DNA of 64,000 bases, from assembly GCA_046597375.1 (NCBI GenBank), contig JBKJKM010000174.1:15677-79676 (forward strand). Direction: 5' to 3'. The stretch comes from Acidimicrobiales bacterium (lineage in GTDB: Bacteria > Actinomycetota > Acidimicrobiia > Acidimicrobiales > CADCTF01). The position numbers were made by a program, and so were the translations under genes. Shown one piece after another: positions 3,700 to 16,134 of this stretch (the first letter of the stretch is position 1; each line of letters starts with the position of its first letter). The notes beneath the pieces are model-generated. The model did no database searches and was not told where the DNA came from. It worked only from the letters and a program-made list of their open reading frames with translations.

Positions 3700-5188
<1,489 letters not shown>

Positions 5189-5206
5189 CCCCAGGATTCG
5201 ACTCGC

Positions 5207-6106
5207 TCAGTTCTGGAGGCTGAGGACCTCGGACGCCACCTCGCCGAGCTCGTCGTCCCACGACGCCGGCTCGCCGGCGGGCACGAGGACGAACTTGGAG
5301 AACCCGACCTCGCAGAAGCGCTCGAGGTGGGCGCGGAGCGCCGGAAGGCCGGCCGGCACCACGTCACCGGGATCGGCGTCGGGGTTGCGGGCCCGCAGCA
5401 CCGACGCCAACCGTTCCGGGAGCTCCGCGCTCCGCGTGTAGATGACGAGGGCTCCCCAGTGTTCGGCGTCGACCTCGCGACCGGCGGCCGAGGCCGCTTG
5501 CTCGACCACGGTCCGTCCGGCCGCCGCCTCGGCCGGCGACGAGAACGAAGGGAGCCAGCCGTCGCCCAGGCGGCCGACCCGGCGCAGCTCGCTCGGCGCC
5601 CGACCGCCCAGCCAGACCTCGAGGGGCGACTGCACCGGCTTGGGCCGAACGCCGATGCCTTGGTAGGAGAAGAACGGGCCCTCGTGGTCGACCGTGTCCT
5701 CGGTCCAGAAGCGCCGCAGCAGCGGGAGGGCCTCGTCGAAGCGCTTGGCCCGCTCCGTACGCTCGACGCCGAAGGCCTGTTGCTCGGCGCCATCGGCCAC
5801 GCCGAGGCCGAACGCCGGCAACAGCCGGCCATTGGAGAGGTGGTCGAGCGAGGCGAGTTCCTTGGCCAGCAGGACCGGGTTGCGTCCGGGGAGCACGAGG
5901 ACGGAGAAGCCGAGCTTGAGCTTCTTCGTGCGGCCCGCGGCGACGGACAAACCAACGATCGGGTCGACGGCTCCGCCGGTCACCCGTTCGCTCAACCACA
6001 GCGAGTCGAACCGGTTGGCCTCGAGACCGTCGACCAGCGCCGCGAAGCCGGCACCCCCAGCAGTGGAGGTGCCGGTACCCAGGCCGTAGCCGACGCGAAT
6101 CTTCAC
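5207..6106 (-). CDS. LLM-class (luciferase-like) F420-dependent oxidoreductase
   Basis: GTG 6104-6106 overlaps the stop of the upstream gene (GTGA). VKIRVGYGLG...FDSLWLSERV...LGFSVLVLPGRNPVLLAKELASLDHLSNGRLLPAFGLG matches the LLM family pattern. The 621-aa track ORF is an artefactual fusion. Confidence 0.8.
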   Translation of the reverse strand: MKIRVGYGLGTGTSTAGGAGFAALVDGLEANRFDSLWLSERVTGGAVDPIVGLSVAAGRTKKLKLGFSVLVLPGRNPVLLAKELASLDHLSNGRLLPAFGLGVADGAEQQAFGVERTERAKRFDEALPLLRRFWTEDTVDHEGPFFSYQGIGVRPKPVQSPLEVWLGGRAPSELRRVGRLGDGWLPSFSSPAEAAAGRTVVEQAASAAGREVDAEHWGALVIYTRSAELPERLASVLRARNPDADPGDVVPAGLPALRAHLERFCEVGFSKFVLVPAGEPASWDDELGEVASEVLSLQN

Positions 6107-7023
6107 GAGACCTTCAGTGTGCCCTCCATGTCCGGGTGGAGGCTGCAATAGAAGCGGTAGGCGCCGGCCTCGAGGTCGAATTCGGCACGACCCGCCTTCT
6201 GGCCCGGGACTTGCTCGGCCACCACGCCGTTGATGGTGAAATCGTGGTGTGCGACGTCGTCGTTCTCGACGAACACGGTGATGCGGCCGGCGTCGGCGTC
6301 GAGGGTCGAGGCGCTGAACTCGAAATTCTTCGCCTGCAGCGTCAGATCGCCGGGCATGCGGGTCGCTGATCCGGTCAGCGAGCCCGCCACGATGCCGACG
6401 ACCACCAGGACGGCGATGACGGCGCCGGCGACCTTCGGGGCCACGCCGGCCATTGGTCCCCCTTGGCGACGCAGGGCCCCGACCGTTGCCACGAGACCGA
6501 GGACGCTGACGACGAACAAGCCACCGAAGAGGATGAGCTCGAACGTGCTCTCTGCCCGGGTCAAGACGGTGAGGCCTCCAAACATGGCGACCATGGCGAA
6601 CAGGAGGAGGCTGACGATGCCGGCGTAGACCACGCCTCCCCGTCCCTCCGACCGGTGCAGCCAAACGACGCCGCCGGACACGATCACTCCGATCACGAGA
6701 GGCATGGGATCGAGACGCCCCTCGAAGAGGAGGGTGATGACGGCCATGAAGGCCGCCATGATCGCCTGTCCGACGGCTGCCCCCCGCAGGACGTCTCGCC
6801 ACGTCCTGTCCGTCGTCGGGGTGATCGGGCTCGTCGTGGTCGGGATCGGGGTTGTCGTGGTGCTGGTCGTGCGCACTGCCGCCTCCTGCGGGATGGTCTG
6901 ACCTCCCCAGCGTGCGCCGCCGACGCCGACCGGCGCAGGAGTGCCAGCCAGCGTTCCTGCTGGGGGTGCTAGCCCCACCCCCGCAGCCGGGCGGATGGGG
7001 GGGGTGCTCAGCGTCCGGTCCAC
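6103..7023 (-). CDS. Polytopic membrane protein with C-terminal cupredoxin (amicyanin-like type-1 copper) domain
   Basis: There are about 4 predicted TM helices, then FEFSASTLDADAGRITVFVENDDVAHHDFTI...YRFYCSLHPDMEGTLKVS. The H...C-x2-H-x2-M ligand spacing matches amicyanin (YHCTPHPFM). The start codon is uncertain because it overlaps the upstream gene by 16 nt. Confidence 0.7.
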   Translation of the reverse strand: MDRTLSTPPIRPAAGVGLAPPAGTLAGTPAPVGVGGARWGGQTIPQEAAVRTTSTTTTPIPTTTSPITPTTDRTWRDVLRGAAVGQAIMAAFMAVITLLFEGRLDPMPLVIGVIVSGGVVWLHRSEGRGGVVYAGIVSLLLFAMVAMFGGLTVLTRAESTFELILFGGLFVVSVLGLVATVGALRRQGGPMAGVAPKVAGAVIAVLVVVGIVAGSLTGSATRMPGDLTLQAKNFEFSASTLDADAGRITVFVENDDVAHHDFTINGVVAEQVPGQKAGRAEFDLEAGAYRFYCSLHPDMEGTLKVS

Positions 7024-7808
7024 TCCGGACGACGCTTTTCGGCGAAGGCGGCCAGGCCCTCCTTGGCGTCATTCGTGAGCGTGGTGAGCGTGAGCATCGG
7101 ATGGAGGTACTCGAGGGCGTCAGCGGCGGCCCGGTCCCAGACGGCGTAGAACGAGTCCCGTCCGAGCTTCACGATCGCCGGTGACTTGGTCACCAGTGCT
7201 CCTGCCAACTCGGCGACGGCTTCGTCGAGGCCGTCGACGGGGACGACCCGGTTGACGAACCCCACGCGCTCGGCTTCGGCGGCGCCGACACGGCGACCGG
7301 TGAGCATCAGCTCGAGCACCTTCTTCGGCGGCATCGAACGCACCAGCGGCACGGTGATCATGAACGGCCAGAGCCCCACGTCGATCTCGGGCGTCCCGAA
7401 CTGGGCATCGTCGGCAGCGACCACGAAGTCGCAGGCGAGGGCGAGGCCCATACCGCCGGCCAACGCGTAGCCCCGCACGCGGGCGATCGTCGGCTTGCCG
7501 AGCGACCATAGGTCGAGAAAGAGGCCGGCCAACCCGCCTCGACCCTCGTGGAGTTCGAGGAACCCCGTCGCCGATCCCGCCTCGGCCGTCGGGCCGGCCA
7601 TGCCATCGAGGTCGGCCCCTGCGCAGAACGCCCGATCCCCCGCTCCGGTGAGCACGACCACACGCACCGAGTCGTCGTCGCGCAAGGTCGCCAGCACGGA
7701 CCGGAGCTCCCCGATCACCGCCCACGACAGTGCGTTGCGCCGCTCCGGGCGGTTGATGGTCACCGTCGCCACGCCTCCTGCGGTCGTGCAGAGGACCTCG
7801 TCGGTCAT
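7008..7808 (-). CDS. Enoyl-CoA hydratase/isomerase family protein
   Basis: VATVTINRPERRNAL...VLTGAGDRAFCAGADL...ARVRGYALAGGMGLALACDF is a crotonase fold. Confidence 0.85.
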   Translation of the reverse strand: MTDEVLCTTAGGVATVTINRPERRNALSWAVIGELRSVLATLRDDDSVRVVVLTGAGDRAFCAGADLDGMAGPTAEAGSATGFLELHEGRGGLAGLFLDLWSLGKPTIARVRGYALAGGMGLALACDFVVAADDAQFGTPEIDVGLWPFMITVPLVRSMPPKKVLELMLTGRRVGAAEAERVGFVNRVVPVDGLDEAVAELAGALVTKSPAIVKLGRDSFYAVWDRAAADALEYLHPMLTLTTLTNDAKEGLAAFAEKRRPEWTGR

Positions 7809-7842
7809 CGTTGGATCACAGCTCGGACGCTACCGTCGGTTC

Positions 7843-8388
7843 GTGTTCATCGCCGTGGCCATCGTGGCCGGCATCGTTCTCGGGTTGGCGCGAGGCGGGC
7901 GGTTCGAGAACCTCGGCGAGGCGGCCTTTCGCCTGTGGCCGCTGCTGATCCTGGGCGTGGTCGTCCAGGGCGCCGCCGCCTTCACCGGCGACGGTGCCGT
8001 CATCATGATCCTGGCCAGTTACGTGCTGCTGCTCCTCTTCGCAGCTGCCAACCTGCACTTCGCAGGCATGGGTGTCGTGTTCGTCGGCATCGCCCTCAAT
8101 GTGGCCGTCATCGGCGTGAACGGTGGCATGCCCGTTCGCGACGACGCCATCGTGGCGGCGGGCATCGTCGAGCGGGCCGAGATCGCCACCCTCGACTTCG
8201 GCGCCAAGCGTCATCTCGAGACCGACGACGACCGACTCACGTTGCTGGGCGACATCGTCCCGGTTCCGCTGGCCGGGGAGGTGCTGTCGTTCGGCGACCT
8301 GGCGATGAGCGTCGGCGTCGCCACCGTCCTGGTGACGCTCCTCAGACGGAGAGGGCGGGGAGGGTCTGCGTTGACAAGTAGCGGTTGA
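7843..8388 (+). CDS. Small polytopic membrane protein (DUF5317-like, tentative)
   Basis: GTG 7843 is the first plausible start in the frame of the 7495..8388 ORF after the upstream gene ends. The protein has hydrophobic helices, NVAVIGVNGGMPV and a GDIVPVPL...SFGDL motif. The family name is from memory only. Confidence 0.55.
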   Translation: MFIAVAIVAGIVLGLARGGRFENLGEAAFRLWPLLILGVVVQGAAAFTGDGAVIMILASYVLLLLFAAANLHFAGMGVVFVGIALNVAVIGVNGGMPVRDDAIVAAGIVERAEIATLDFGAKRHLETDDDRLTLLGDIVPVPLAGEVLSFGDLAMSVGVATVLVTLLRRRGRGGSALTSSG

Positions 8389-8923
8389 GGGCGTGCAGCG
8401 TGGCCCGGACTGCGGCCTGCTCGACGTTGGTGCCGGCGGCCACGCCGTAGCGCTGGCCCGACTGCTCTGAGCCGAGCACGATCATCACGCCCTCACCGAG
8501 CACGTGCTCGAACAGGGCGGCCGCTTCCACCTGGAAGGGCACCTTGGCCCCGAGCCGCTGCAAGGCGTCGAAGGTCGCCGCCGCCGCCGCCGTCGGATCG
8601 TCGCCGTTGGCCCGTCCCACCGTGCGGACGCCCTCGAAGCCGAGGTGAACCTCGATGGCCACGGGCTCGGCGTCGCGGTCGACGAGGTGCACGTCGAGGA
8701 GCCGGATGCGCGAGGGACGAGTGCCGCCGGCGATCTCCACCACGAACGGTCGATCGAGGTGGGCGCGACACGAACGCTCGGCCTGGTGGCGCAGCGTGGA
8801 GGGGTCGGGGCTGGCGAGAGCGAGCACTTGGACCACGAGAGTGTCGGTCCGCTCATGGAACCCGACGAAGGCCACGTTGGGCAGGCGTCGCAGATCGAGC
8901 TCGAGGAGGTCGAGCGACTTCAC
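8342..8923 (-). CDS. Hypothetical protein (paralog A of 12949..13677); last gene of the c-di-GMP operon
   Basis: The start GTG overlaps the GGDEF gene stop (GTGA). Third codon positions are G/C-rich. It shares domain order and conserved positions with the 12949..13677 product. I recognise no family. Confidence 0.6.
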   Translation of the reverse strand: MKSLDLLELDLRRLPNVAFVGFHERTDTLVVQVLALASPDPSTLRHQAERSCRAHLDRPFVVEIAGGTRPSRIRLLDVHLVDRDAEPVAIEVHLGFEGVRTVGRANGDDPTAAAAATFDALQRLGAKVPFQVEAAALFEHVLGEGVMIVLGSEQSGQRYGVAAGTNVEQAAVRATLHALNRYLSTQTLPALSV

Positions 8924-9807
8924 GGGCGCTTCCCCTGGGAGAGGCGGGCATCGGCCGTGGAAAAGAGGTCCTCGGGCCGGAAGCCGTCGTCGGGCGAGAC
9001 GGCGTAGCCGGCGCTCAAGGTGACCCCGGCGTTGGGCACGGCCGATTCGATGGTCCGCTCGATGCGGTCGACCAACTCGGCGACGGCCGCCTCGCCGACA
9101 TTTGGGAGCACCAGGGCGAACTCGTCACCACCGATGCGGGCGGCGACATCACCTCCCCGCAACCGGAGTCGCAGCTCACTCCCCACGGCCTGGAGTGTTG
9201 CGTCCCCGGCGTCGTGCCCGAAGCGGTCGTCGGCCATCTTCACATCCCCCAGATCGAGCACGACCAGCGCAAACGGCCAGCCGTAGCGCTGGGACTGGGC
9301 GCACGACCTCGCCAGGGCCTCATCGAACGCGCGCCGGTTGAGCAGGCCCGTGAGGGCGTCGTGCCGCGAGTCGTGGCGAGCCACGTCGAGTTGGAGCGCC
9401 AGCGAGCAGAGCTGCATGACGCTTCCGGCCACGGCGATGTCGATCGGTGCCGGCGTGGCGTGAATGCCTGCGGTACCGCTACGGACGAGCTCTTGGGCCC
9501 AGCTCGTCTCGATGGGACGGCGACCGGCCCGGAAGGCTTGGCGGCCGAGCGGACCGTCATCGACGATGACGAGCACGTCCTCGGCCTCGCTGCTCCGCTG
9601 CATCCGATCGAGGGACCGGTAGACGAACTCCACACCGCTCTCGGCGGCGGCGAGGTCGGCGGTCACGGAGCCCAACGAGGAGTCGGCCTGGGAATCGATG
9701 GTCGGCAGGAGCGAGAGCGGAGGCTCGGCGACGAGGGTCGCGTCCGGCGGGTCGGCCACGCCAGGACCGTTCTCCCCGAGCTTCTTCCGCCAGGCCACGT
9801 TCGACAT
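8920..9807 (-). CDS. Diguanylate cyclase (GGDEF domain) with uncharacterised N-terminal domain
   Basis: HDALTGLLNRRAF...LVVLDLGDVKMADDRFGHDAGDATL...ARIGGDEFALVLP shows an intact GGDEF active site. Confidence 0.9.
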   Translation of the reverse strand: MSNVAWRKKLGENGPGVADPPDATLVAEPPLSLLPTIDSQADSSLGSVTADLAAAESGVEFVYRSLDRMQRSSEAEDVLVIVDDGPLGRQAFRAGRRPIETSWAQELVRSGTAGIHATPAPIDIAVAGSVMQLCSLALQLDVARHDSRHDALTGLLNRRAFDEALARSCAQSQRYGWPFALVVLDLGDVKMADDRFGHDAGDATLQAVGSELRLRLRGGDVAARIGGDEFALVLPNVGEAAVAELVDRIERTIESAVPNAGVTLSAGYAVSPDDGFRPEDLFSTADARLSQGKRP

Positions 9808-9867
9808 TACTCGCCGCCTTGTCGGCGACCTCCTGCCCGGATGGCCGGGCTCCGTGACAACTGCCCG

Positions 9868-11082
9868 TTACCGGCAGTCGTGGGCATCGTGATCGTCGTG
9901 GCCGTCGTGGCCGTCGTGGCCGGCGCCGGCGGCGACGAGCGACAGGATGCGGCTGGCCGCTCGAGCCTCCTCGACGATGGCGGGGCGGCGATCGTGGAGG
10001 CGGAGCAATGCGATGGCGGCCGTCCGTTCGAGTCCTTCGCCGTGATGGGCGAGGAGGGCGGCGAACGGGTCGTCGGGTCCCTGTTCGCCCTCGGGGTCAG
10101 CGAGATCGTCGAGGGTGCTGCAGACCCGGATGGTGGCGGCCTCCAGGGTCCGGATGGCGTGGCCCCCGAGCAGCGCTTGCTCGACGAGGTCGGCGACGTC
10201 GGCGAGAAAGCCGGTCTCGCGAAGGAGCTCACCGCTCACGCGGCTGATCTCCGTGGTATCGAGCGGGCCGTTCCGCTCCTCCGGTTCGTGCAGCGAAATG
10301 TGTCCGATGTGATGGAGTCGAGCGGCCGTGGTGACGCGGTCGACCGTGACGGCGTCGAAGCCAAGCTCGTCCGCCAACGCCGCGGCGTACACGGCCGTCC
10401 GCTCGCCGTGGCCGAGCGGCGTTAAGCCCGCGACCTCCGGCAACAGGCTCAGCGCCCTCGTCGTCTGGGCGTAGGTGCGGCGGGCCTGGCTGAATCGCCC
10501 GAAGGAATACTTGGTCACGAGCAGCGGCACGGCAGCGATGAGCGAGAGCACGGGGCTCTGGCGGAAGGCAACGGCCAGGAGGGCGGCGGCGCAGAGGAGG
10601 GTGACGTAGAGCGGACCGACCTGGGCGAGGTGGCGCCGGCCGAGCGCGAGATCGACCAGCAGGAAGGCGGAGCCGGTGATGGCGACCTCGACGAGGATCT
10701 GGAGGTCTCCGCCGCCTTCGCCCACGACCGACTCCAGCCCAAGCTGGGCCACAGCCGCAGCCGCCGCTCCGCCGGCCACCACCACGAGACCCTGGCGCCC
10801 CGAACGTGCGGCCGCCACGACGACGATGGCCGCACCGGCCACGGCGAGGCCTTCGGCGGGGTGCATCAAAACGGCGACGGCGATCAGGATGGCGTGGCCC
10901 AGCGGCACGGCGCCGCCCCAGGGGAGGTCGACCTCGAGCAGCAACCCGGCGGCCACGACGAGGGCGGCTCCAGCCAGCGCCGCAAGTCGTTGTTGGCCGT
11001 CGACCTGGAGGGCGACCACAACGAGCGTCAGGATCGCGGCCGGGCCGGACCGCAGAACGAGCACCCCTCGGTGACCGGTCAC
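9868..11082 (-). CDS. Polytopic membrane protein with degenerate HD-GYP-like C-terminal domain and His/Asp-rich tail
   Basis: About 7 N-terminal hydrophobic helices are followed by GHGERTAVYAAALADELGF...ARLHHIGHISL, where HD-GYP proteins have HDIGK. There is no HHExxDGxGYP. The C-terminus is GHDGHDGHDDHDAHDCR. The start GTG overlaps the upstream stop (GTGA). Confidence 0.7.
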   Translation of the reverse strand: MTGHRGVLVLRSGPAAILTLVVVALQVDGQQRLAALAGAALVVAAGLLLEVDLPWGGAVPLGHAILIAVAVLMHPAEGLAVAGAAIVVVAAARSGRQGLVVVAGGAAAAAVAQLGLESVVGEGGGDLQILVEVAITGSAFLLVDLALGRRHLAQVGPLYVTLLCAAALLAVAFRQSPVLSLIAAVPLLVTKYSFGRFSQARRTYAQTTRALSLLPEVAGLTPLGHGERTAVYAAALADELGFDAVTVDRVTTAARLHHIGHISLHEPEERNGPLDTTEISRVSGELLRETGFLADVADLVEQALLGGHAIRTLEAATIRVCSTLDDLADPEGEQGPDDPFAALLAHHGEGLERTAAIALLRLHDRRPAIVEEARAASRILSLVAAGAGHDGHDGHDDHDAHDCR

Positions 11083-12443
11083 GCTTCGCCGGCCGACACC
11101 AGGGCCGGCGGCGACGCGACCGTCGGCGGCATCTGCATTCGGTCGCCGAGACCCGCCGACCCGACACCGGCCACGGGCGGGGCGACGTCGAACTCCACGG
11201 CGTCCTCCTCGTAGCCGAGGCCGTGCCGCTCGCCCCGTTCCTCGATGGCGGTGATCAAGGCGGTGACGCAGTCAGGGTGGAACTGGCTGCCCGACTTGGC
11301 TCGCAACTCGTCGAAGGCAACATCCATCGGCAGCGCCCGACGATAGGAGCGCGTCGACGTCATGGCGTCGAAGGCGTCGGCTACGGCCACGATGTAGGCC
11401 TCCAGGGGACGGTCGGCCGTGCCGCCGTACCCACCACCGTCGAAGCGTGCGTGGTGACCGGAGGCGGCGGCGGTCATCGGCTTCAGGAAGTCGACGAGTC
11501 CGAGGATGTCGATGCAGACGTGGGCGTGTCGCTGCACCCGCTCGAACTCGCCGTCGGTGAGCTTGCCCGGCTTGTTCAACAGGTGCTTCGGGACGGCCAG
11601 CTTGCCGATGTCATGCATCAGAGCGGACTGGCGGAGGTGTTCCAGGCGCTGATGGGAGAACCCGAGCTTCTCGCCCATGGCCAGGCTGTAGTTGCAAACC
11701 CGCTGGGTATGGCGTGCCGTATAGGTGTCCTTGGCCTCGATCGCCCGCAGGAAGACCCGGATCGTCGCCTCGTGGGCCTCGTTGAGCTCGAGGAACGAGG
11801 TGAACGTCTGCCGGGCGATCACGACGGGGGCCAGGAGCAGCAGCACGGCCAAGGGCCCGAGGTTGGCGTAGAGCTGGCCGACGAACGTGCCGAGGAGGCC
11901 GAAGGCGAGGTAGTTGGGCAGCGCCGGGTACATGTCGGCCCAGACCCGGCGGGCCGGCTGGCCATGGACGACCACGATGCCCGGCAGCACCAGGCTCACG
12001 TTCACGATGCCGAACACCAGGCCGGTGACGAGAACTCGCACGATCGCCGGCAGGCCTATGCCGGCCTGGTAGGCGCTGGCCGCCCCAACCGAGGACACCA
12101 GGTACTGGGTGCAGTTGGCCACGACGACAGAGAAACGACGTTGGCGGAGGTGGGTGAGGCTGACTCCGCTGCAGGCGCCGACGATGGCGGCGCCGATCAC
12201 GAGACCCCGTTCATCGAAGGCGGCGATCGCCGCCATCACCACCATGAAGCTCGGGCTCACATCGATCTTCGACGGGAGCAGGACGGCGCCGTGCTCAGCC
12301 CACAGGATGAGGGCGATGAAGAAGGCCAGGGTCAGGGGATGCGGCAACTCGTTGTCGAAAGCGCAGCCGACGATGGCAACGAGAAGGGCCGTGGCCGCCG
12401 ACGCGAGGGCCAGGCCGCGGGTGCGGCGTGAGGCGCTGGTCAT
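11079..12443 (-). CDS. Membrane-anchored HD-GYP domain phosphodiesterase
   Basis: YTARHTQRVCNYSLAMGEKLG...ALMHDIGKLAVP...GHHARFDGGGYGG is an HD-GYP signature following about 7 TM helices. The start is taken at ATG 12443 (MTSASRRTRG). An alternative in-frame ATG lies at 12542. Confidence 0.85.
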   Translation of the reverse strand: MTSASRRTRGLALASAATALLVAIVGCAFDNELPHPLTLAFFIALILWAEHGAVLLPSKIDVSPSFMVVMAAIAAFDERGLVIGAAIVGACSGVSLTHLRQRRFSVVVANCTQYLVSSVGAASAYQAGIGLPAIVRVLVTGLVFGIVNVSLVLPGIVVVHGQPARRVWADMYPALPNYLAFGLLGTFVGQLYANLGPLAVLLLLAPVVIARQTFTSFLELNEAHEATIRVFLRAIEAKDTYTARHTQRVCNYSLAMGEKLGFSHQRLEHLRQSALMHDIGKLAVPKHLLNKPGKLTDGEFERVQRHAHVCIDILGLVDFLKPMTAAASGHHARFDGGGYGGTADRPLEAYIVAVADAFDAMTSTRSYRRALPMDVAFDELRAKSGSQFHPDCVTALITAIEERGERHGLGYEEDAVEFDVAPPVAGVGSAGLGDRMQMPPTVASPPALVSAGEA

Positions 12444-12549
12444 CTCGTCCGACTGTCCCACCACATCTCCTGAATACGACGGTCCCCGCACCGTGACGAC
12501 TGGATCGAGAAAGAGGCGGCAGAAGCTCACCTGAGTGGTCATGATCGAT

Positions 12550-12642
12550 CTAGCCGATCTTGAAGCCGGCGCCGCCGGCCAGAAGCAGGCCGGCAAGGCT
12601 GGTTGCGATAGCAGCCACGCGGACAATGAGCTTCTTCTTCAT
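12550..12642 (-). CDS. Unannotated 30-codon ORF encoding a small hydrophobic peptide, first cistron of the c-di-GMP operon
   Basis: GGGGAGGTG lies 8 nt upstream of ATG (12640-12642). The peptide is MKKKLIVRVAAIATSLAGLLLAGGAGFKIG, with stop TAG at 12550-12552. Third positions are mostly G/C. It is too short for the ORF track. Confidence 0.45.
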   Translation of the reverse strand: MKKKLIVRVAAIATSLAGLLLAGGAGFKIG

Positions 12643-12948
12643 GTGTTGCACCTCCCCTCGAATGTCACTTGCCCCGTGTCCGCTAGGACGGGGTGCGATC
12701 CGCTCCGCTGGTGAGGCACGCAGGCATGAGCCCCTGCCGTCTCCCTCTCTCTCCAGTTGTCAAGGTGCTGTGATGCTCGGACTTCCCACTGGTCAGCCCG
12801 CGGACGAGGGTCCCTCGTCCCCCATGGATCGGCATCCGCGCCTCCCAACAAAAGGGGGAAGACGGAAGAAATCGGGCCGGAGCCGTTTCCGCCTCCACGG
12901 TAATGAACAACGTCAACGCCGTCAACATGTCCAACATCGTCCCCATGG

Positions 12949-13677
12949 GTGACATCCTCCGTTCGGCGCTGGTGCCCCGGTACGGTGGGCCTGGTGCAGA
13001 CAGCCAGCGGGGTCGACCTGGACGAACTCGAGCACGAGCTCTGTCGGATCGTCGAGGTGACTGCGGCGCGGATCGTCGCTGATGGCGACGGGCGCATCGC
13101 CGAGGTCCACATCCTCTCGTTGCCCCACAAGCACGCCAAGCAAGTGGTGCGCGACGTCCAGTCCGTGGCCATGGCCACCTTCGGGCTCGATCTCGACCGT
13201 CGAATCGTGTCCGTCGTCCAGCTCGATGCCGTTGCGTCGAGCTCGATCACCGGGCCGGACCTCGATGTCGACCTCGAAGGTGATCCGCCGAACACGCGCA
13301 TCCACGTCGACGGCGTGACCACCGACCGCAATGGGCTGCAGTGCACGGCGCGCGTCGTGCTCACCCAAGGCGATCAGCGAGCGACCGGGGCGGCCGAGGG
13401 CCTCGTCGCCACGAGTAGCGTCCTGCGCCTCGTCGCCCAGGCGACGATCGCCGCCCTCCGCCACCTCGAGCCGGCGGCGATCCGCTCGGACGTCGAGACC
13501 GCCAGCCTCATCCGGATCGGTGACCGGGCCGTGGCCGTGACGACGGTCGTCGTCGTGGTCCCGCCTTACGAAGAGGTCATCTCCGGCTCCGCCGTGGTCC
13601 GCTCCGCCGGCGAGTTCGATGCCATCGCCAGGTCGGTGCTCGACGCCACCAACCGGCGCCTCCCCAAGCTCCGCTGA
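12949..13677 (+). CDS. Hypothetical protein (paralog B of 8342..8923)
   Basis: The long ORF has G/C-rich third positions. It has the same two-part architecture as 8342..8923. The start is uncertain (GTG at 12949, 12985 or 12994). The stop TGA at 13675-13677 overlaps the probable CTG start of the next gene. Confidence 0.65.
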   Translation: MTSSVRRWCPGTVGLVQTASGVDLDELEHELCRIVEVTAARIVADGDGRIAEVHILSLPHKHAKQVVRDVQSVAMATFGLDLDRRIVSVVQLDAVASSSITGPDLDVDLEGDPPNTRIHVDGVTTDRNGLQCTARVVLTQGDQRATGAAEGLVATSSVLRLVAQATIAALRHLEPAAIRSDVETASLIRIGDRAVAVTTVVVVVPPYEEVISGSAVVRSAGEFDAIARSVLDATNRRLPKLR

Positions 13678-14624
13678 CCCGCACCGCCGCCGTCGTCTCG
13701 TACCGCCTCGGCGGCACCGACGGGGTGTCGGTCGAGGCGGCCAAGTGGACGGGGGCGCTCGAGGCGCTCGGTTTCGCGGTCCGCCCCGTTGCGATCTGGG
13801 CGGACGCCACCACGGCCATCGAGGAGGCCATCGACGGGGTGGAGGTGGTGGTGGTGGAGAACGTGCTCTCGCTGCCGCTCGATCCTTCGGCCGCACACCG
13901 GTTGGCGCAGGCGCTGCGGGGCCGCCCCGCCATCGTGCGCCACCACGACCTGCCGTGGCAGCGGCCGGCCTGGCCCGATGGCGTCGTGGCCGACGACCCG
14001 GCCTGGACCCACGTCGTTCTCAATTCGATCGCCGCCGCCGAGCTCTCGGCCCGCCAGGGCATCCGAGCCAAGGTTCTTCCCAACCGTTTTCCGCTCGACG
14101 GATGGCTCCCGGCGAGACCCCACGACGGGCGGGTGCTGCTCCACCCCGTGCGCGCCATCGCCCGCAAGGACGTGCCCACGGCCGTTGCTCTGGCGGAGCG
14201 CCTCGGGGCCACCTACTGGCTCACCGGACCGGCTGAGGACGGCTATGACGACGAGCTTCGTCGGATACTCCGCGGCGCCCGATGCCCGGTCCGCCACGAG
14301 GCCGCCGCATCCATCGCGACGGCCTACGCCGCCTGTGACGCCGTCGCCTTCTCCTCGACCCTCGAAGGCTTCGGCAACCCGGTGATCGAGGCCGCCCTCG
14401 CCCGTCGGCCCCTGGCCGTGCGCCCGTACCCGGTGCTGGTGGCCGACCTCGCGCCTCTGGGGTTCCGCTGGTTTGCGGCGGACGACGACGACCGACGACT
14501 GGCCCGCTTCCTCGACGATCCTGACGCCAGACTGCTCGACCACAACGAGGCCCTCGCCCAGGCCCATTTCGGCCTCGACCGCCTGCCGGGCGAGCTGTCC
14601 GCCGTGCTAGATCGGGTCCTGTGA
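13674..14624 (+). CDS. GT-B fold glycosyltransferase (GT4-like)
   Basis: The C-terminal half has AFSSTLEGFGNPVIEAAL (the E-x7-E region of GT4). The conserved first beta-strand and Gly-rich loop (AAVVSYRLGGTDGVSVEAAKW) lie upstream of the first canonical start (GTG 13725). The start is therefore placed at CTG 13674, within the CTGA overlap. Confidence 0.75.
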   Translation: MTRTAAVVSYRLGGTDGVSVEAAKWTGALEALGFAVRPVAIWADATTAIEEAIDGVEVVVVENVLSLPLDPSAAHRLAQALRGRPAIVRHHDLPWQRPAWPDGVVADDPAWTHVVLNSIAAAELSARQGIRAKVLPNRFPLDGWLPARPHDGRVLLHPVRAIARKDVPTAVALAERLGATYWLTGPAEDGYDDELRRILRGARCPVRHEAAASIATAYAACDAVAFSSTLEGFGNPVIEAALARRPLAVRPYPVLVADLAPLGFRWFAADDDDRRLARFLDDPDARLLDHNEALAQAHFGLDRLPGELSAVLDRVL

Positions 14625-14902
14625 ATGACGGGCGAGGGAGCGACACCGCGGGCGACCCGGTGCTGGTGCGGCGGGCGCAGCTCGAGCGGTTGGCCGTTCT
14701 CGGGCAACGGGTCGGCTACGTGTTCCTCCTCGTCGCCGTGGTCGCCTTCTTTTTGGGCCTAGCCGCGGGGTACGGCACCTGGGGTCGTGTCGTCATCGCC
14801 GCCATGGCCCTGTGCACCCTCACGCTGGCGCCGGCCATCGTCTTGGGCTACGCCGTCAAGGCGGCAGCCCGGGAAGACCGCCAGGCCGGGCGCCCCTCCT
14901 GA
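14621..14902 (+). CDS. Small membrane protein with two TM helices, hypothetical
   Basis: GTGA overlap with the glycosyltransferase stop. VGYVFLLVAVVAFFLGLAAGY and VVIAAMALCTLTLAPAIVLGYAV are the hydrophobic helices. Confidence 0.55.
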   Translation: MNDGRGSDTAGDPVLVRRAQLERLAVLGQRVGYVFLLVAVVAFFLGLAAGYGTWGRVVIAAMALCTLTLAPAIVLGYAVKAAAREDRQAGRPS

Positions 14903-15030: not shown

Positions 15031-16134
15031 ATGAGTAAGGCCGCCGTCCACGTCGGGCTCGACCAACCGCTGGAGATCCGCGACGACATCGAGGTCGCGG
15101 CGCCCAAGGCGGGTGAGCTGAAGGTTCGCATCGCCGCCTCCGGCGTCTGCCACTCCGATCTGTCCGTCCAGAACGGCACCATCCCGCTGCCGCCGCCGAT
15201 CGTGCTCGGCCACGAAGGCGCCGGCGTCGTCGAAGAGGTGGGCGAAGGCGTCGAGGGGTTCGAGGTGGGCGACCACGTCGTGTTGACCTTCGTGCCCGAG
15301 TGCGGCGAGTGCTTCTTCTGCCAGCGCGACCAGGGCTTCATGTGTGAAAAGTCCTCGATGCTCAACATGGGAGGCATGCTCGACGGCACCAAGCGCCTCT
15401 CGTCCGGTGGGTCGCCGCTGAGCCAGATGGCCGGTTGCGGCACCTTCTCCGAGGTCACCGTTTGCCCCGCCATCAGCGCCGTGAAGATCGACAAGGACGT
15501 ACCTCTGAAGATCGCCGCCCTTCTCGGCTGCGGTGTGCAGACCGGCGTCGGTGCGGCGATGAACACCGCCTCGATCCGCAAGGGCGACACCGTGGCCGTC
15601 ATCGGCTGCGGCGGCGTCGGCCTCAACGTGATCCAGGGTGCCCGCATCGCCGGCGCCGAGAAGATCATCGCCGTCGACATGATCGAGTCGAAGCTGCAGC
15701 TGGCCAAGGAGTTCGGCGCCACCGACTTCGTCAACGCCGGTGACGGCAACCCCGTCGCCGCCGTGCAGGCCCTCAGCGAGAATCGCGGCGTCGACGTGGC
15801 CTTCGAGGTCATCGGCCTCGGCCCGACCATCGAGCAGGCGATGCAGATGACCCGCGTCGGCGGCGAGACGATCCTCGTCGGCGTGCCCCGCATGGACGTC
15901 ATGCTCAACATCAACCCGGCGTTCAACTTCATCTACACGGCCAAGACGGTGAAGGGCTGCTGGTACGGCTCGTGCAACGTGCACCGGGAAGTGCCGAAGC
16001 TGATCGCCCTCTACAAGTCCGGAGAGCTCAAGCTCGACGAACTCATCTCACGCGAGATCAGCATCGACGACGTCAACTCCGCCTTCGACGCCATGAAGAC
16101 CGGCGAAGTCGCCCGAACGGTCATCGTCTACTGA
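15031..16134 (+). CDS. Zinc-dependent alcohol dehydrogenase (class III / NDMA-dependent ADH-like)
   Basis: GVCHSDL, GHEGAGVVEEVG, CGECFFCQ (structural Zn Cys cluster) and VIGCGGVGLNVIQG (Rossmann). AAGGGGA lies upstream of the ATG. Confidence 0.9.
   Translation: MSKAAVHVGLDQPLEIRDDIEVAAPKAGELKVRIAASGVCHSDLSVQNGTIPLPPPIVLGHEGAGVVEEVGEGVEGFEVGDHVVLTFVPECGECFFCQRDQGFMCEKSSMLNMGGMLDGTKRLSSGGSPLSQMAGCGTFSEVTVCPAISAVKIDKDVPLKIAALLGCGVQTGVGAAMNTASIRKGDTVAVIGCGGVGLNVIQGARIAGAEKIIAVDMIESKLQLAKEFGATDFVNAGDGNPVAAVQALSENRGVDVAFEVIGLGPTIEQAMQMTRVGGETILVGVPRMDVMLNINPAFNFIYTAKTVKGCWYGSCNVHREVPKLIALYKSGELKLDELISREISIDDVNSAFDAMKTGEVARTVIVY

Follow-up and report, generated by a model that had tools for sequence, protein, structure and literature searches.

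A proposed signalling island of Acidimicrobiia with a structured leader RNA, paired membrane HD proteins and two putative regulatory subunits

Results

The window, i.e. the whole 64,000-nt stretch analysed here, belongs to an Acidimicrobiales bacterium MAG (GCA_046597375.1, contig JBKJKM010000174.1, forward-strand positions 15,677-79,676). The gene order that an earlier note had described was borne out, with every named gene found at or near its place, and the GTGA start/stop overlaps joining the degenerate HD protein to HD-GYP, protein A to the GGDEF cyclase and the 2-TM protein to the glycosyltransferase (GT) were confirmed. The cluster, which recurs throughout the class Acidimicrobiia (soil Acidimicrobiia), is a probable membrane-associated signalling island. 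One side of its class-wide core comprises a leader RNA, a 30-aa membrane peptide and a translationally coupled pair of polytopic HD-domain paralogues, of which one is degenerate in every case; the divergent side carries protein B, a GT4-like or DHPS-like gene and a 2-TM protein gene. In the clade of the window, a two-gene cassette of GGDEF cyclase and protein A is inserted downstream in the HD operon. The far side of the core is formed by a DUF5317 membrane protein gene (7816-8388, plus strand; PF17248 3.6e-23, 82.7 bits against a cut-off of 25), which was missing from the earlier note and converges on the gene of A, with a 47-nt overlap of the two 3' ends. Its start is uncertain and hydropathy points to about 5 TM segments; the gene is present in 58 of 61 B loci and adjoins A in many A loci.

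The leader and the membrane peptide of 28-31 aa heading the HD operon are new findings, the leader being previously undescribed. In the window, the small ORF (12550-12642, minus strand) follows a GGAGG Shine-Dalgarno sequence and encodes a 30-aa peptide with a single TM segment, MKKKLIVRVAAIATSLAGLLLAGGAGFKIG. Peptides of 28-31 aa with the consensus MKKxYVRxA..S.AALLLAGGA occur in 69 loci, and the cross-locus nucleotide alignment displays third-position variation. The conserved 5' leader of about 110 nt (12643-12751, minus strand) was delineated with nhmmer and a covariance model, the latter giving 73 matches, one per locus; the 200-nt region found no family match in Rfam 15 even at E <= 10. 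On the minus strand it contains a first block, GAGACGGCA(A/G)GGCCUC, a second block, AGCGGAGCGG (12700-12709), a CCCCG/CGGGG hairpin with a YAGCG loop (12672-12693) and the Shine-Dalgarno sequence GAGGGGAGGUG (12649-12659). The hairpin is 97.9% paired with 96 double-change cells, its covariation of 0.834 compares with 0.257 in shuffles (reached in 0 of 500), and RNAalifold returned the identical 5 pairs. AGCGRAGCG and the YAGCG loop are invariant in the 73 leader loci. The 5' arm of the hairpin is C-rich, and its 3' arm is GGAGG-like and lies beside the real Shine-Dalgarno sequence, which suggests translational control. In the alignments, a TTGACA hexamer (12758-12763, minus strand) that precedes the leader by about 20 nt is conserved only in the clade of the window; it may represent a -35 element or an operator, and a promoter scan of this region gave no full sigma-70 match.

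The first HD gene (11079-12542, minus strand, start ATG at 12542) encodes a predicted membrane HD-GYP phosphodiesterase of about 487 aa with about 6 TM segments (HD_5 2.4e-27). The metal ligands H..HD..H..HH..D are present and the signature reads DGGGYGG, hence GYG rather than GYP. The domain aligns over its whole length with V-cGAP3 (5Z7C, 4.6e-31), PmGH (4MCW, 9e-24) and PA4781 (4R8Z, 4e-18), and all metal ligands are kept, including those of V-cGAP3 and PmGH. Since the closest solved relative is a 3'3'-cGAMP phosphodiesterase, the substrate of the window enzyme may be other than c-di-GMP. Its degenerate paralogue (9868-11082, minus strand; 404 aa, about 7 TM segments by hydropathy) has no Pfam match and was recognised by a NosR-family HD-GYP model (7e-6) and by BLASTP to the window HD-GYP (2e-5). 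Its description as a degenerate HD-GYP-like protein holds, as HD is replaced by HH (LHHIGH), HHxxDGxGYP is missing and the C-terminal tail is His/Asp-rich; the degenerate form is itself conserved, with LHH[IL]G retained in a motif alignment of 20 loci. The combination of a predicted active HD-GYP with an inactive paralogue echoes known non-catalytic HD-GYP variants, of which PA2572 is an example of a degenerate protein. Unlike known HD-GYP proteins, both window proteins have an uncharacterised N-terminal domain of 6-7 TM segments where REC or GAF would stand, GYG replaces GYP in the signature, and HH and GYP are both lost in most orthologues from Acidimicrobiia. The HD pair adjoins B in 58 of 61 loci. 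Among 58 loci, the HD-GYP orthologue keeps HH..DGxGY only in the clade of the window (10 loci) and has lost it in 48. All eight loci with A-GGDEF fall among these ten; this correlation lies within one clade and may therefore reflect a single evolutionary event.

The cytosolic diguanylate cyclase (8920-9807, minus strand; 295 aa; PF00990 2e-33, PDB DGC domains 4e-20) consists of an N-terminal region of about 145 aa and of unknown type, in which Pfam and PDB searches recognised no known sensor domain, followed by a GGDEF domain that retains both the GGDEF motif and the RxxD I-site (LRGGDVAARIGGDEF). It is followed by the gene of protein A (8342-8923, minus strand), a soluble protein of 193 aa. 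A GGDEF gene lies directly upstream of A in all 31 testable loci, including those without shared synteny, at an intergenic distance of -10 to +43 nt, and both motif and I-site are intact in 30 of the 31 cyclases. A profile search with A yielded 576 clusters at 50% identity, and the pair occurs in unrelated contexts as well (L081, L082, L101-L129). GGDEF-A is a clade-specific two-gene insertion at the locus of the window; in other genomes it sits elsewhere, so that it functions independently of this locus.

Protein B (12994-13677, plus strand) is soluble and has 227 aa, as has an identical database protein; the alternative start at 12949 is probably too long. It has 1221 homologues, every one annotated as hypothetical, and is present in at least 566 species genomes. 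The next gene encodes a soluble GT of about 316 aa (13674-14624, plus strand), which probably starts at a CTG overlapping the TGA of B. This CTGA overlap had been proposed before and was borne out: no in-frame ATG, GTG or TTG exists upstream, the overlapping CTG recurs in L001-L005 and L053, and a start at the annotated GTG (13725) would cut off the conserved AVVSYRLGG at the N-terminus. Taken on its own, the window protein supports a GT4-like classification weakly (Glyco_trans_1_4 8e-5, 23.3 bits, cut-off 27), but many orthologues carry PF13692/PF00534. Of the curated families, that of a compatible-solute synthase comes nearest (MggS model, 5.5e-20), far under its cut-off (71.5 versus 640 bits), and for this soluble enzyme an identity as EPS synthase was rejected. 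In 18 of 69 loci a DHPS-like gene replaces the GT, and B and the 2-TM gene remain. The latter (14621-14902, plus strand; 93 aa, TM segments by hydropathy) lies downstream of B in 67 of 69 loci, including those with replaced GT. B is also kept where the HD protein lost HH/GYP or the HD pair is absent altogether (L011, L055), hence B is tied neither to the c-di-GMP enzymes nor to the GT.

The earlier note had regarded A and B as paralogues. Pairwise BLASTP failed to detect homology (E = 2.2), but profile-profile comparison with hhalign (91.8% probability, E 7e-7, 181 collinear columns), profile cross-scores of up to 31 bits and the same topology of the AF2 models (pLDDT 91.8 for A, 88.8 for B) support that they are very distant homologues. 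In the models, both combine a ferredoxin-like N-domain with a (beta-beta-beta-alpha)x2 C-domain, with a disordered linker at residues 80-96 in B. Among solved structures, Foldseek matched both proteins best to the LeuA and citramalate synthase allosteric domains (for A, MtLeuA 2.8e-6 and the LiCMS regulatory domain with TM 0.61-0.67; for B, MtLeuA 1sr9_B 2.8e-5), i.e. regulatory ligand-binding domains and not a housekeeping enzyme. With the LeuA/CimA domain (PF08502; PDB 1SR9, 3FIG, 3F6G, 3F6H; Foldseek probability 1.0), the C-domains share the two-fold beta-beta-beta-alpha architecture and the terminal helix motif R-A-x-L-x-A-L/T-N-R-Y/R-L. LeuA_dimer sequence matches, all below the Pfam threshold, were found in 18 of 30 A members and weak AsnC/RAM matches in 8 of 30 B members. 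In contrast to LeuA/CimA, A and B are standalone proteins fused to a ferredoxin-like N-domain without an HMGL-like catalytic domain, and their gene partners are a diguanylate cyclase (A) or the GT/2-TM operon (B), not leucine/isoleucine biosynthesis genes. Domain searches including 30 members of each family detected neither PilZ nor MshEN nor any other signature known for c-di-GMP binding.

Discussion

The presence of an HD paralogue with the full HD-GYP metal-ligand set together with the inserted GGDEF-A cassette indicates that the locus of the window encodes enzymes both to make and to hydrolyse c-di-GMP or a related cyclic dinucleotide. Hence, the self-contained c-di-GMP circuit proposed in the earlier note is plausible here, but it does not extend to the class, given that GGDEF-A is clade-specific, HH..DGxGY is kept in only 10 of 58 loci and the GT is exchangeable. 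Control of a glycosylation or EPS step by this circuit goes beyond the evidence, regarding the replacement of the GT and its rejection as EPS synthase. Turnover genes for c-di-GMP also stand beside glycosyltransferase operons in the BcsA-PilZ, Alg44, PelD and Gram-positive Pel systems (PMC7112168); unlike these, the locus has neither a synthase-type membrane GT nor export genes, and its GT is small, soluble, free of a receptor domain and dispensable at its position. The expected co-occurrence of the A/B family with signalling genes was found for A with GGDEF as well as for B with the membrane HD pair. Synteny is as strong for the ECH and ADH flanks as for the module, hence the linkage may in part reflect no more than conserved gene order, which taken by itself is weak evidence.

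The LeuA-like fold of the models and the strict pairing of A with its cyclase favour a sensor or regulatory-subunit role of A and B. The whole is best explained, with a probability of roughly 0.45, by a signalling island in which A and B act in trans as small-molecule-binding regulatory subunits, built from a LeuA/citramalate synthase-like allosteric domain and a RAM/CDF-CTD-like dimerisation domain. A would bind its cognate cyclase, itself devoid of a recognisable sensor domain, and, on sensing a metabolite, gate the dimerisation or activity of this enzyme. B might be a paralogue that has been rewired either to the HD pair or to the divergent GT/2-TM operon, the inactive HD paralogue could serve as heterodimer partner or receptor for the active HD-GYP, and the leader may control translation of the operon via its anti-SD/pseudo-SD hairpin. 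Accessory regulators are encoded with diguanylate cyclases in the cases of YfiR with YfiN/TpbB and SiaABC with SiaD. The likeness consists in a small co-transcribed protein dedicated to one cyclase that has an I-site; unlike YfiR and SiaABC, A is of unrelated fold, cytosolic and, judged from its model, similar to amino-acid-binding allosteric domains.

Alternatively, A and B could be cyclic-dinucleotide receptors downstream of the messenger, effectors as the earlier note had proposed, with A capturing the product of its own cyclase in local signalling and B passing the signal to the GT or the 2-TM protein. The strict linkage of A to a predicted active cyclase, the position of B in the GT operon and the ligand-binding regulatory fold suggested by both models would fit, and new c-di-NMP receptor families are still emerging, with inactivated HD-GYP domains accepted as receptors and counted among the c-di-GMP targets (PMC12448109). 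We nevertheless consider this rather unlikely, because the known binding signatures are absent from A and B, their closest fold binds amino acids, and B is universal in lineages that lost the HD-GYP signature and have no cyclase in the locus. Moreover, in known systems strict operon coupling to a single cyclase is commoner among accessory regulators than among effectors.

The leader invites comparison with the c-di-GMP-I/II riboswitches, which likewise are structured 5' UTRs upstream of cyclic-dinucleotide turnover genes; its AGCG repeats and YAGCG-loop hairpin differ from them, the architecture not being GEMM-like, and a protein-binding leader is equally possible as a ligand-binding one. TRAP and HutP recognise repeated triplets in RNA. 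By analogy, B and perhaps A might be ligand-gated RNA-binding proteins for the three AGCG repeats, which are invariant in a leader encoded directly opposite B and missed by the covariance model in the four B-less loci scanned (L083, L084, L088, L093). Secondary Foldseek matches of A and B to dsRBD, PUR and ribosomal S5 folds point the same way, but these are weak (E 1e-3 to 1e-2, TM about 0.2) compared with E 1e-5 to 1e-6 for LeuA/CMS, B occurs without leader in L011 and L055, and the co-occurrence of B and leader is confounded with the presence of the HD operon, which makes such a function improbable.

Finally, the divergent operons could be functionally independent and neighbours solely by conserved gene order, with B-GT/DHPS-TM2 belonging to a cytosolic glycoside or folate-like pathway, the HD proteins being unrelated membrane hydrolases and GGDEF-A being present by chance. 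The equally conserved ECH and ADH flanks, the alternation of GT and DHPS-like gene, the 48 HD orthologues without GYP signature, the other genomic sites of GGDEF-A and the loci having B without the HD pair are all compatible with this scenario. It is still unlikely, since A and B are homologous proteins within one island and the four B-less loci have GGDEF-A in the same slot, between DUF5317 and GT/TM2. Furthermore, the HD pair of L077, although inverted, still lies beside B and is co-directional with it, and in L100, which lost the HD pair, the leader still adjoins B and drives GGDEF-A.

Gene organization of the locus

Gene calls were derived from codon-position G+C analysis, an ORF listing and searches against Pfam and NCBIfam, which together upheld the gene order proposed in the earlier note for this window of about 69% G+C. 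The minus strand encodes a small ORF of 30 aa (sORF, 12550-12642), a membrane HD-GYP protein (11079 to about 12542; HD_5, 2.4e-27), its degenerate HD paralogue (9868-11082, GTGA-coupled), a GGDEF cyclase (8920-9807; PF00990, 2e-33) and the 193-aa protein A (8342-8923, GTGA-coupled). The divergent plus-strand operon consists of protein B (12994-13677), a GT4-like glycosyltransferase (GT, 13674-14624) and a protein with two TM segments (TM2, 14621-14902, GTGA-coupled). The most likely start of B is the GTG at 12994, giving 227 aa, and that of the HD-GYP protein the ATG at 12542, 7 nt past the sORF stop codon. A further membrane gene of the DUF5317 type (7816-8388, plus strand; PF17248, 82.7 bits against a cut-off of 25) is convergent on A and was absent from the earlier account. 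The 3' ends of these two genes overlap by 47 nt (8342-8388), an adjacency that was seen again in many A loci. A kinship between DUF5317 and the TM domain of the HD proteins was also considered, and similarity was absent. The flanks at 3700-7072 and 15031-16134 encode a GDP-mannose 4,6-dehydratase-like epimerase, an HTH regulator, a luciferase-like monooxygenase and an NDMA/mycothiol-type Zn alcohol dehydrogenase.

Protein A and its cyclase

The cyclase gene upstream of A encodes a protein that scores 115.9 bits with PF00990 (gathering threshold 23.8) and matches diguanylate cyclase domains in the PDB at 4e-20. Both the GG(D/E)EF active site and the RxxD inhibitory site are intact in its motif RGGDVAARIGGDEF, and it is predicted to be a diguanylate cyclase forming c-di-GMP from GTP. 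The pairing with A is obligate. Further A members and the loci of a metagenome scan were considered where 850 nt or more of sequence precedes A; in 31 of 31 such loci a GGDEF gene was found directly upstream on the same strand (gap of -10 to +43 nt), and 30 of these 31 cyclases kept both the GGDEF motif and the RxxD I-site. The same pairing holds for A-like proteins of 33-35% identity, which occur in contexts without DUF5317 or enoyl-CoA hydratase (ECH) genes. The full-library profile search returned 576 clusters at 50% identity, hence the A family is large.

At the B locus the A-GGDEF pair is limited to the eight closest loci among the 80 mapped. In the close relatives L004 and L008 precisely A and GGDEF are missing, and the L004 genome carries the pair on another contig among unrelated neighbours. 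In the B-less lineages L083, L084, L088 and L093, GGDEF-A fills the same slot, with DUF5317 on one side and GT (or a DHPS-like gene) with TM2 on the other. The sole Rosetta-stone case joining GGDEF and A is the library protein P0365 (629 aa) with a truncated GGDEF match (125-235) and an A-like region (319-502), which may be a rare fusion or a frameshifted or otherwise artefactual gene call.

Homology and fold of proteins A and B

Proteins A and B had been regarded in the earlier note as paralogues, which pairwise BLASTP does not detect (E = 2.2). The relationship is supported by the comparison of family alignments with 30 members each (hhalign probability 91.8%, E 7e-7, 181 collinear columns), and the B profile scores some A-type proteins at up to 31 bits. 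Confident AlphaFold2 models (pLDDT 91.8 for A and 88.8 for B) display the same topology, i.e. an alpha-beta-beta-alpha-beta N-domain, a variable linker and two beta-beta-beta-alpha units. Hence, A and B are distant homologues with a common fold.

The fold search, which had likewise been proposed, led to the regulatory domain of LeuA/citramalate synthases. With Foldseek against the PDB, LeuA of M. tuberculosis tops the list for both proteins (A: 3fig_A, 2.8e-6; B: 1sr9_B, 2.8e-5). Protein A also matches the regulatory domain of citramalate synthase from Leptospira, solved in isolation (TM 0.61-0.67, rmsd 3.4-4.2 Å), and its superposition with 3f6h, which includes the two beta-beta-beta-alpha units, gave a TM score of 0.67 and an rmsd of 3.4 over 120 columns. 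On the sequence level, LeuA_dimer (PF08502) scores A below gathering (20 bits versus 24.9); such sub-threshold Pfam matches occur in 18 of the 30 A members (best E 1.2e-4) and in none of the 30 B members checked, eight of which match the Lrp/AsnC ligand-binding (RAM) domain weakly. PDB sequence searches with the A and B profiles gave nothing significant, and all database copies of both are named 'hypothetical protein' and have no Pfam domain. The N-domains are akin to cytoplasmic domains found in CDF transporters such as MamM, MamB and ZnT. In LeuA/CimA synthases the regulatory domain is joined to an HMGL-like catalytic TIM barrel, whereas A and B have no catalytic domain. Together, the folds and the N-domain resemblance indicate that A and B, as modelled, are standalone proteins of two regulatory or ligand-binding modules and not enzymes.

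The membrane HD pair

The HD-GYP protein of the window scores 96.2 bits with HD_5 (cut-off 27.2), and its metal ligands H..HD..H..HH..D align with those of 5z7c and 4mcw. Its signature GHHARFDGGGYGG keeps HH, DG and GY and carries G for P in comparison with HHExxDGxGYP. Solved relatives are V-cGAP3 of V. cholerae (4.6e-31), PmGH (9e-24) and PA4781 (4e-18), the closest of which, V-cGAP3, is a 3'3'-cGAMP phosphodiesterase; the window protein may thus hydrolyse c-di-GMP or another cyclic dinucleotide. The signature is clade-restricted: HH..DGxGY is kept in 10 of 58 orthologues, while the other 48 lack the motif and read, for example, SDNTRFDP..D, yet retain HD[IV]GK and DAMTSTRSYR. All eight loci bearing A-GGDEF are among the ten with HH..DGxGY, a single-clade correlation that fits a functional cyclase/phosphodiesterase pair in the window's clade.

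The two HD proteins are paralogous across their TM and HD regions. The downstream protein is degenerate in every lineage examined, with LHH[IL]G for MHDIGK, the middle His gone and no HH..DGxGYP. In the window it reads LHHIGH, has no Pfam match and is linked to the family only by BLASTP (2e-5) and NCBIfam (7e-6). Its C-terminus (9868-9930, minus strand) forms a His/Asp-rich tail, GHDGHDGHDDHDAHDC, whose composition suggests putative metal binding. A presumably active and a dead HD protein conserved together, with the signature lost outside one clade, offer a natural experiment on the transition from phosphodiesterase to pseudo-enzyme.

Synteny around protein B

Protein B is encoded in at least 566 genomes (one genome per species), all of them Acidimicrobiia or unclassified Actinomycetota, and the relatives of A, B and GT come from MAGs named Acidimicrobiales or Acidimicrobiia. 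When the proteins of the window were mapped on 80 loci, a class-wide arrangement emerged: ECH(-) DUF5317(+) [A(-) GGDEF(-)] HDdeg(-) HD(-) / B(+) GT(+) TM2(+) ADH(+), where HDdeg is the degenerate HD protein and ADH an alcohol dehydrogenase. In 58 of the 61 loci with enough sequence, both membrane HD genes are found no more than 5 kb upstream of B, and in 67 of 69 B is followed by TM2; the synteny of HD pair, B and TM2 is thus class-wide. One sub-clade (L022, L067, L069, L075 and L078) has about 3 kb extra, at around 7000-10000, between the leader/HD operon and B.

A conserved leader RNA and micro-protein

When the 350-nt divergent region was aligned in close relatives, the sORF and about 110 nt upstream of it on the minus strand were conserved. 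This leader (12643-12751, minus strand) was traced with nhmmer and then with a covariance model in 73 loci across Acidimicrobiia, in one copy per locus and always 5' of the membrane HD operon. It moves with the inverted operon in L077, L086 and L087; in L100, where the HD pair is lost, it lies 5' of GGDEF-A. Its parts are, in order, a nearly invariant 5' block, GAGACGGCA(A/G)GGCCUCGG, a variable region, an AGCG(G/A)AGCG repeat (AGCGGAGCGG at 12700-12709 in the window), a universal hairpin with a YAGCG loop (12672-12693) and the Shine-Dalgarno sequence. The leader contains three AGCG motifs.

The universal hairpin is 97.9% paired over 69 distinct sequences, and all five modelled pairs show two-sided changes (96 cells). 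Its covariation, in an alignment fitted to the model, is 0.834 versus 0.257 in shuffles (0/500) and at most 0.10 with the partner slid; RNAalifold predicts the same five pairs, and the operon-sense strand is the one favoured by 28 G·U cells. When run on a simple MAFFT alignment, RNAalifold gave no structure because the hairpin arms are misaligned, hence a structure-aware alignment was required. In one sub-clade the variable region forms a second hairpin with a GAAG loop and compensatory changes (93.9% paired, 18 double-change cells, covariation 0.418 versus 0.208 in shuffles). Scanning covariation all against all revealed no helix other than the main hairpin, and a P1 helix around the 5' conserved block was unsupported. 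The 5' arm of the universal hairpin is C-rich and could therefore serve as an anti-SD, and GGAGG often follows on from the 3' arm, beside the true SD. This arrangement hints at possible translational control of the operon.

The first gene behind the leader is the sORF, which encodes a single-TM peptide of 28-31 aa in 69 loci (consensus MKKxYVRxA...S.AALLLAGGA...R/K) with an invariant LLLAGGA core. No Rfam 15 family, including c-di-GMP-I/II, matched at E <= 1 over 8 kb or at E <= 10 over 200 nt, and the covariance models gave no support for a likeness of the divergent region to GEMM-I. We regard the leader as a candidate for a new cis-regulatory RNA, which may work as a riboswitch or by binding a protein. 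A scan of the intergenic region for sigma-70 promoters and terminators was empty. The window's clade, and no other, conserves a TTGACA hexamer (12758-12763, minus strand) within CCTTGACAAC about 20 nt upstream of the leader; a matching -10 element was not found, and either a -35 box or an operator is conceivable.

Possible function of the module

We propose that A would act in trans as the sensory or regulatory subunit of its cyclase, which has no recognisable sensor domain, that B, the paralogue of A, would have been rewired, either to the divergent operon or to the HD pair, and that the dead HD protein would be the partner of the active one. Instead of sensing metabolites, A and B could be receptors of cyclic dinucleotides. 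Their ligand-binding type of fold is compatible with this role, and Pfam/NCBIfam searches at E <= 0.1 found none of the known c-di-GMP receptor domains (PilZ, MshEN and others) in either protein; we regard a receptor role as rather doubtful, though worth keeping in mind. It is also conceivable, and in our judgement unlikely, that the two operons are merely syntenic. The flanking ECH and ADH genes match the module itself in their degree of synteny, which would be expected from such simple co-location. We consider it very improbable that B recognises the AGCG repeats in the leader. The proposed role of A as a cyclase subunit can be extended to a bolder picture, in which the leader represents a novel type of regulatory RNA (a riboswitch that senses a cyclic dinucleotide or its degradation product, or an RNA recognised by B as a new type of ligand-gated RNA-binding protein with a LeuA-type allosteric domain) and A, with its 576 clusters, a new widespread family of dedicated cyclase sensors; this combination seems quite improbable.

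Modules of diguanylate cyclase and HD-GYP proteins as well as degenerate HD-GYP domains are of known kinds (PMC12448109, PMC6205966). New are the standalone LeuA-allosteric-like fold of the A/B family with the strict A-cyclase coupling, the joint conservation of a presumably active and a dead membrane HD protein together with a micro-protein, and the leader absent from Rfam. Acidimicrobiia are an abundant and mostly uncultured class in soil and freshwater, and to our knowledge c-di-GMP signalling is almost unexplored in them; literature searches on DUF5317, on LeuA_dimer and on diguanylate cyclases in Acidimicrobiia gave nothing useful. If A indeed couples a fold of the amino-acid-sensing type to an active cyclase, it would represent a new route from metabolic information to c-di-GMP synthesis, or else a new receptor class. 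The covarying leader and the 30-aa membrane peptide are concrete candidate regulatory elements.

The glycosyltransferase

The earlier note had connected the locus to a glycosylation or exopolysaccharide step, and the exopolysaccharide link is unsupported: GT is a small soluble GT4-like enzyme, it is dispensable at its position, and the nearest curated model is a compatible-solute synthase, the Mannosylglucosylglycerate synthase (NF041101), with 71.5 bits in three stretches versus an equivalog score of 640. The Glyco_trans_1_4 score is 23.3 bits versus 27, many orthologues carry PF13692/PF00534, and a sequence search against the PDB gave nothing significant. GT is present in 48 of 69 loci and is replaced in 18 of the 69 by a DHPS-like gene of the pterin-binding type (TIGR01496, 1.3e-40, below cut-off; e.g. 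10667-11569, minus strand, in L013 and 4107-5027 in L083), the two being mutually exclusive. This replacement is reminiscent of the gene neighbourhood of folP2 and gpgS in mycobacteria, although searching the literature on folP2 with gpgS gave nothing useful. In the window GT probably starts with a CTG that overlaps the TGA of B (CTGA, 13674), because no canonical start codon lies upstream of the conserved N-terminus. The deposited call (299 aa, GTG at 13725) drops the conserved N-terminal AVVSYRLGG. The CTG-over-TGA arrangement was found again in L001-L005 and L053, and distant orthologues start with ATG after a spacer.
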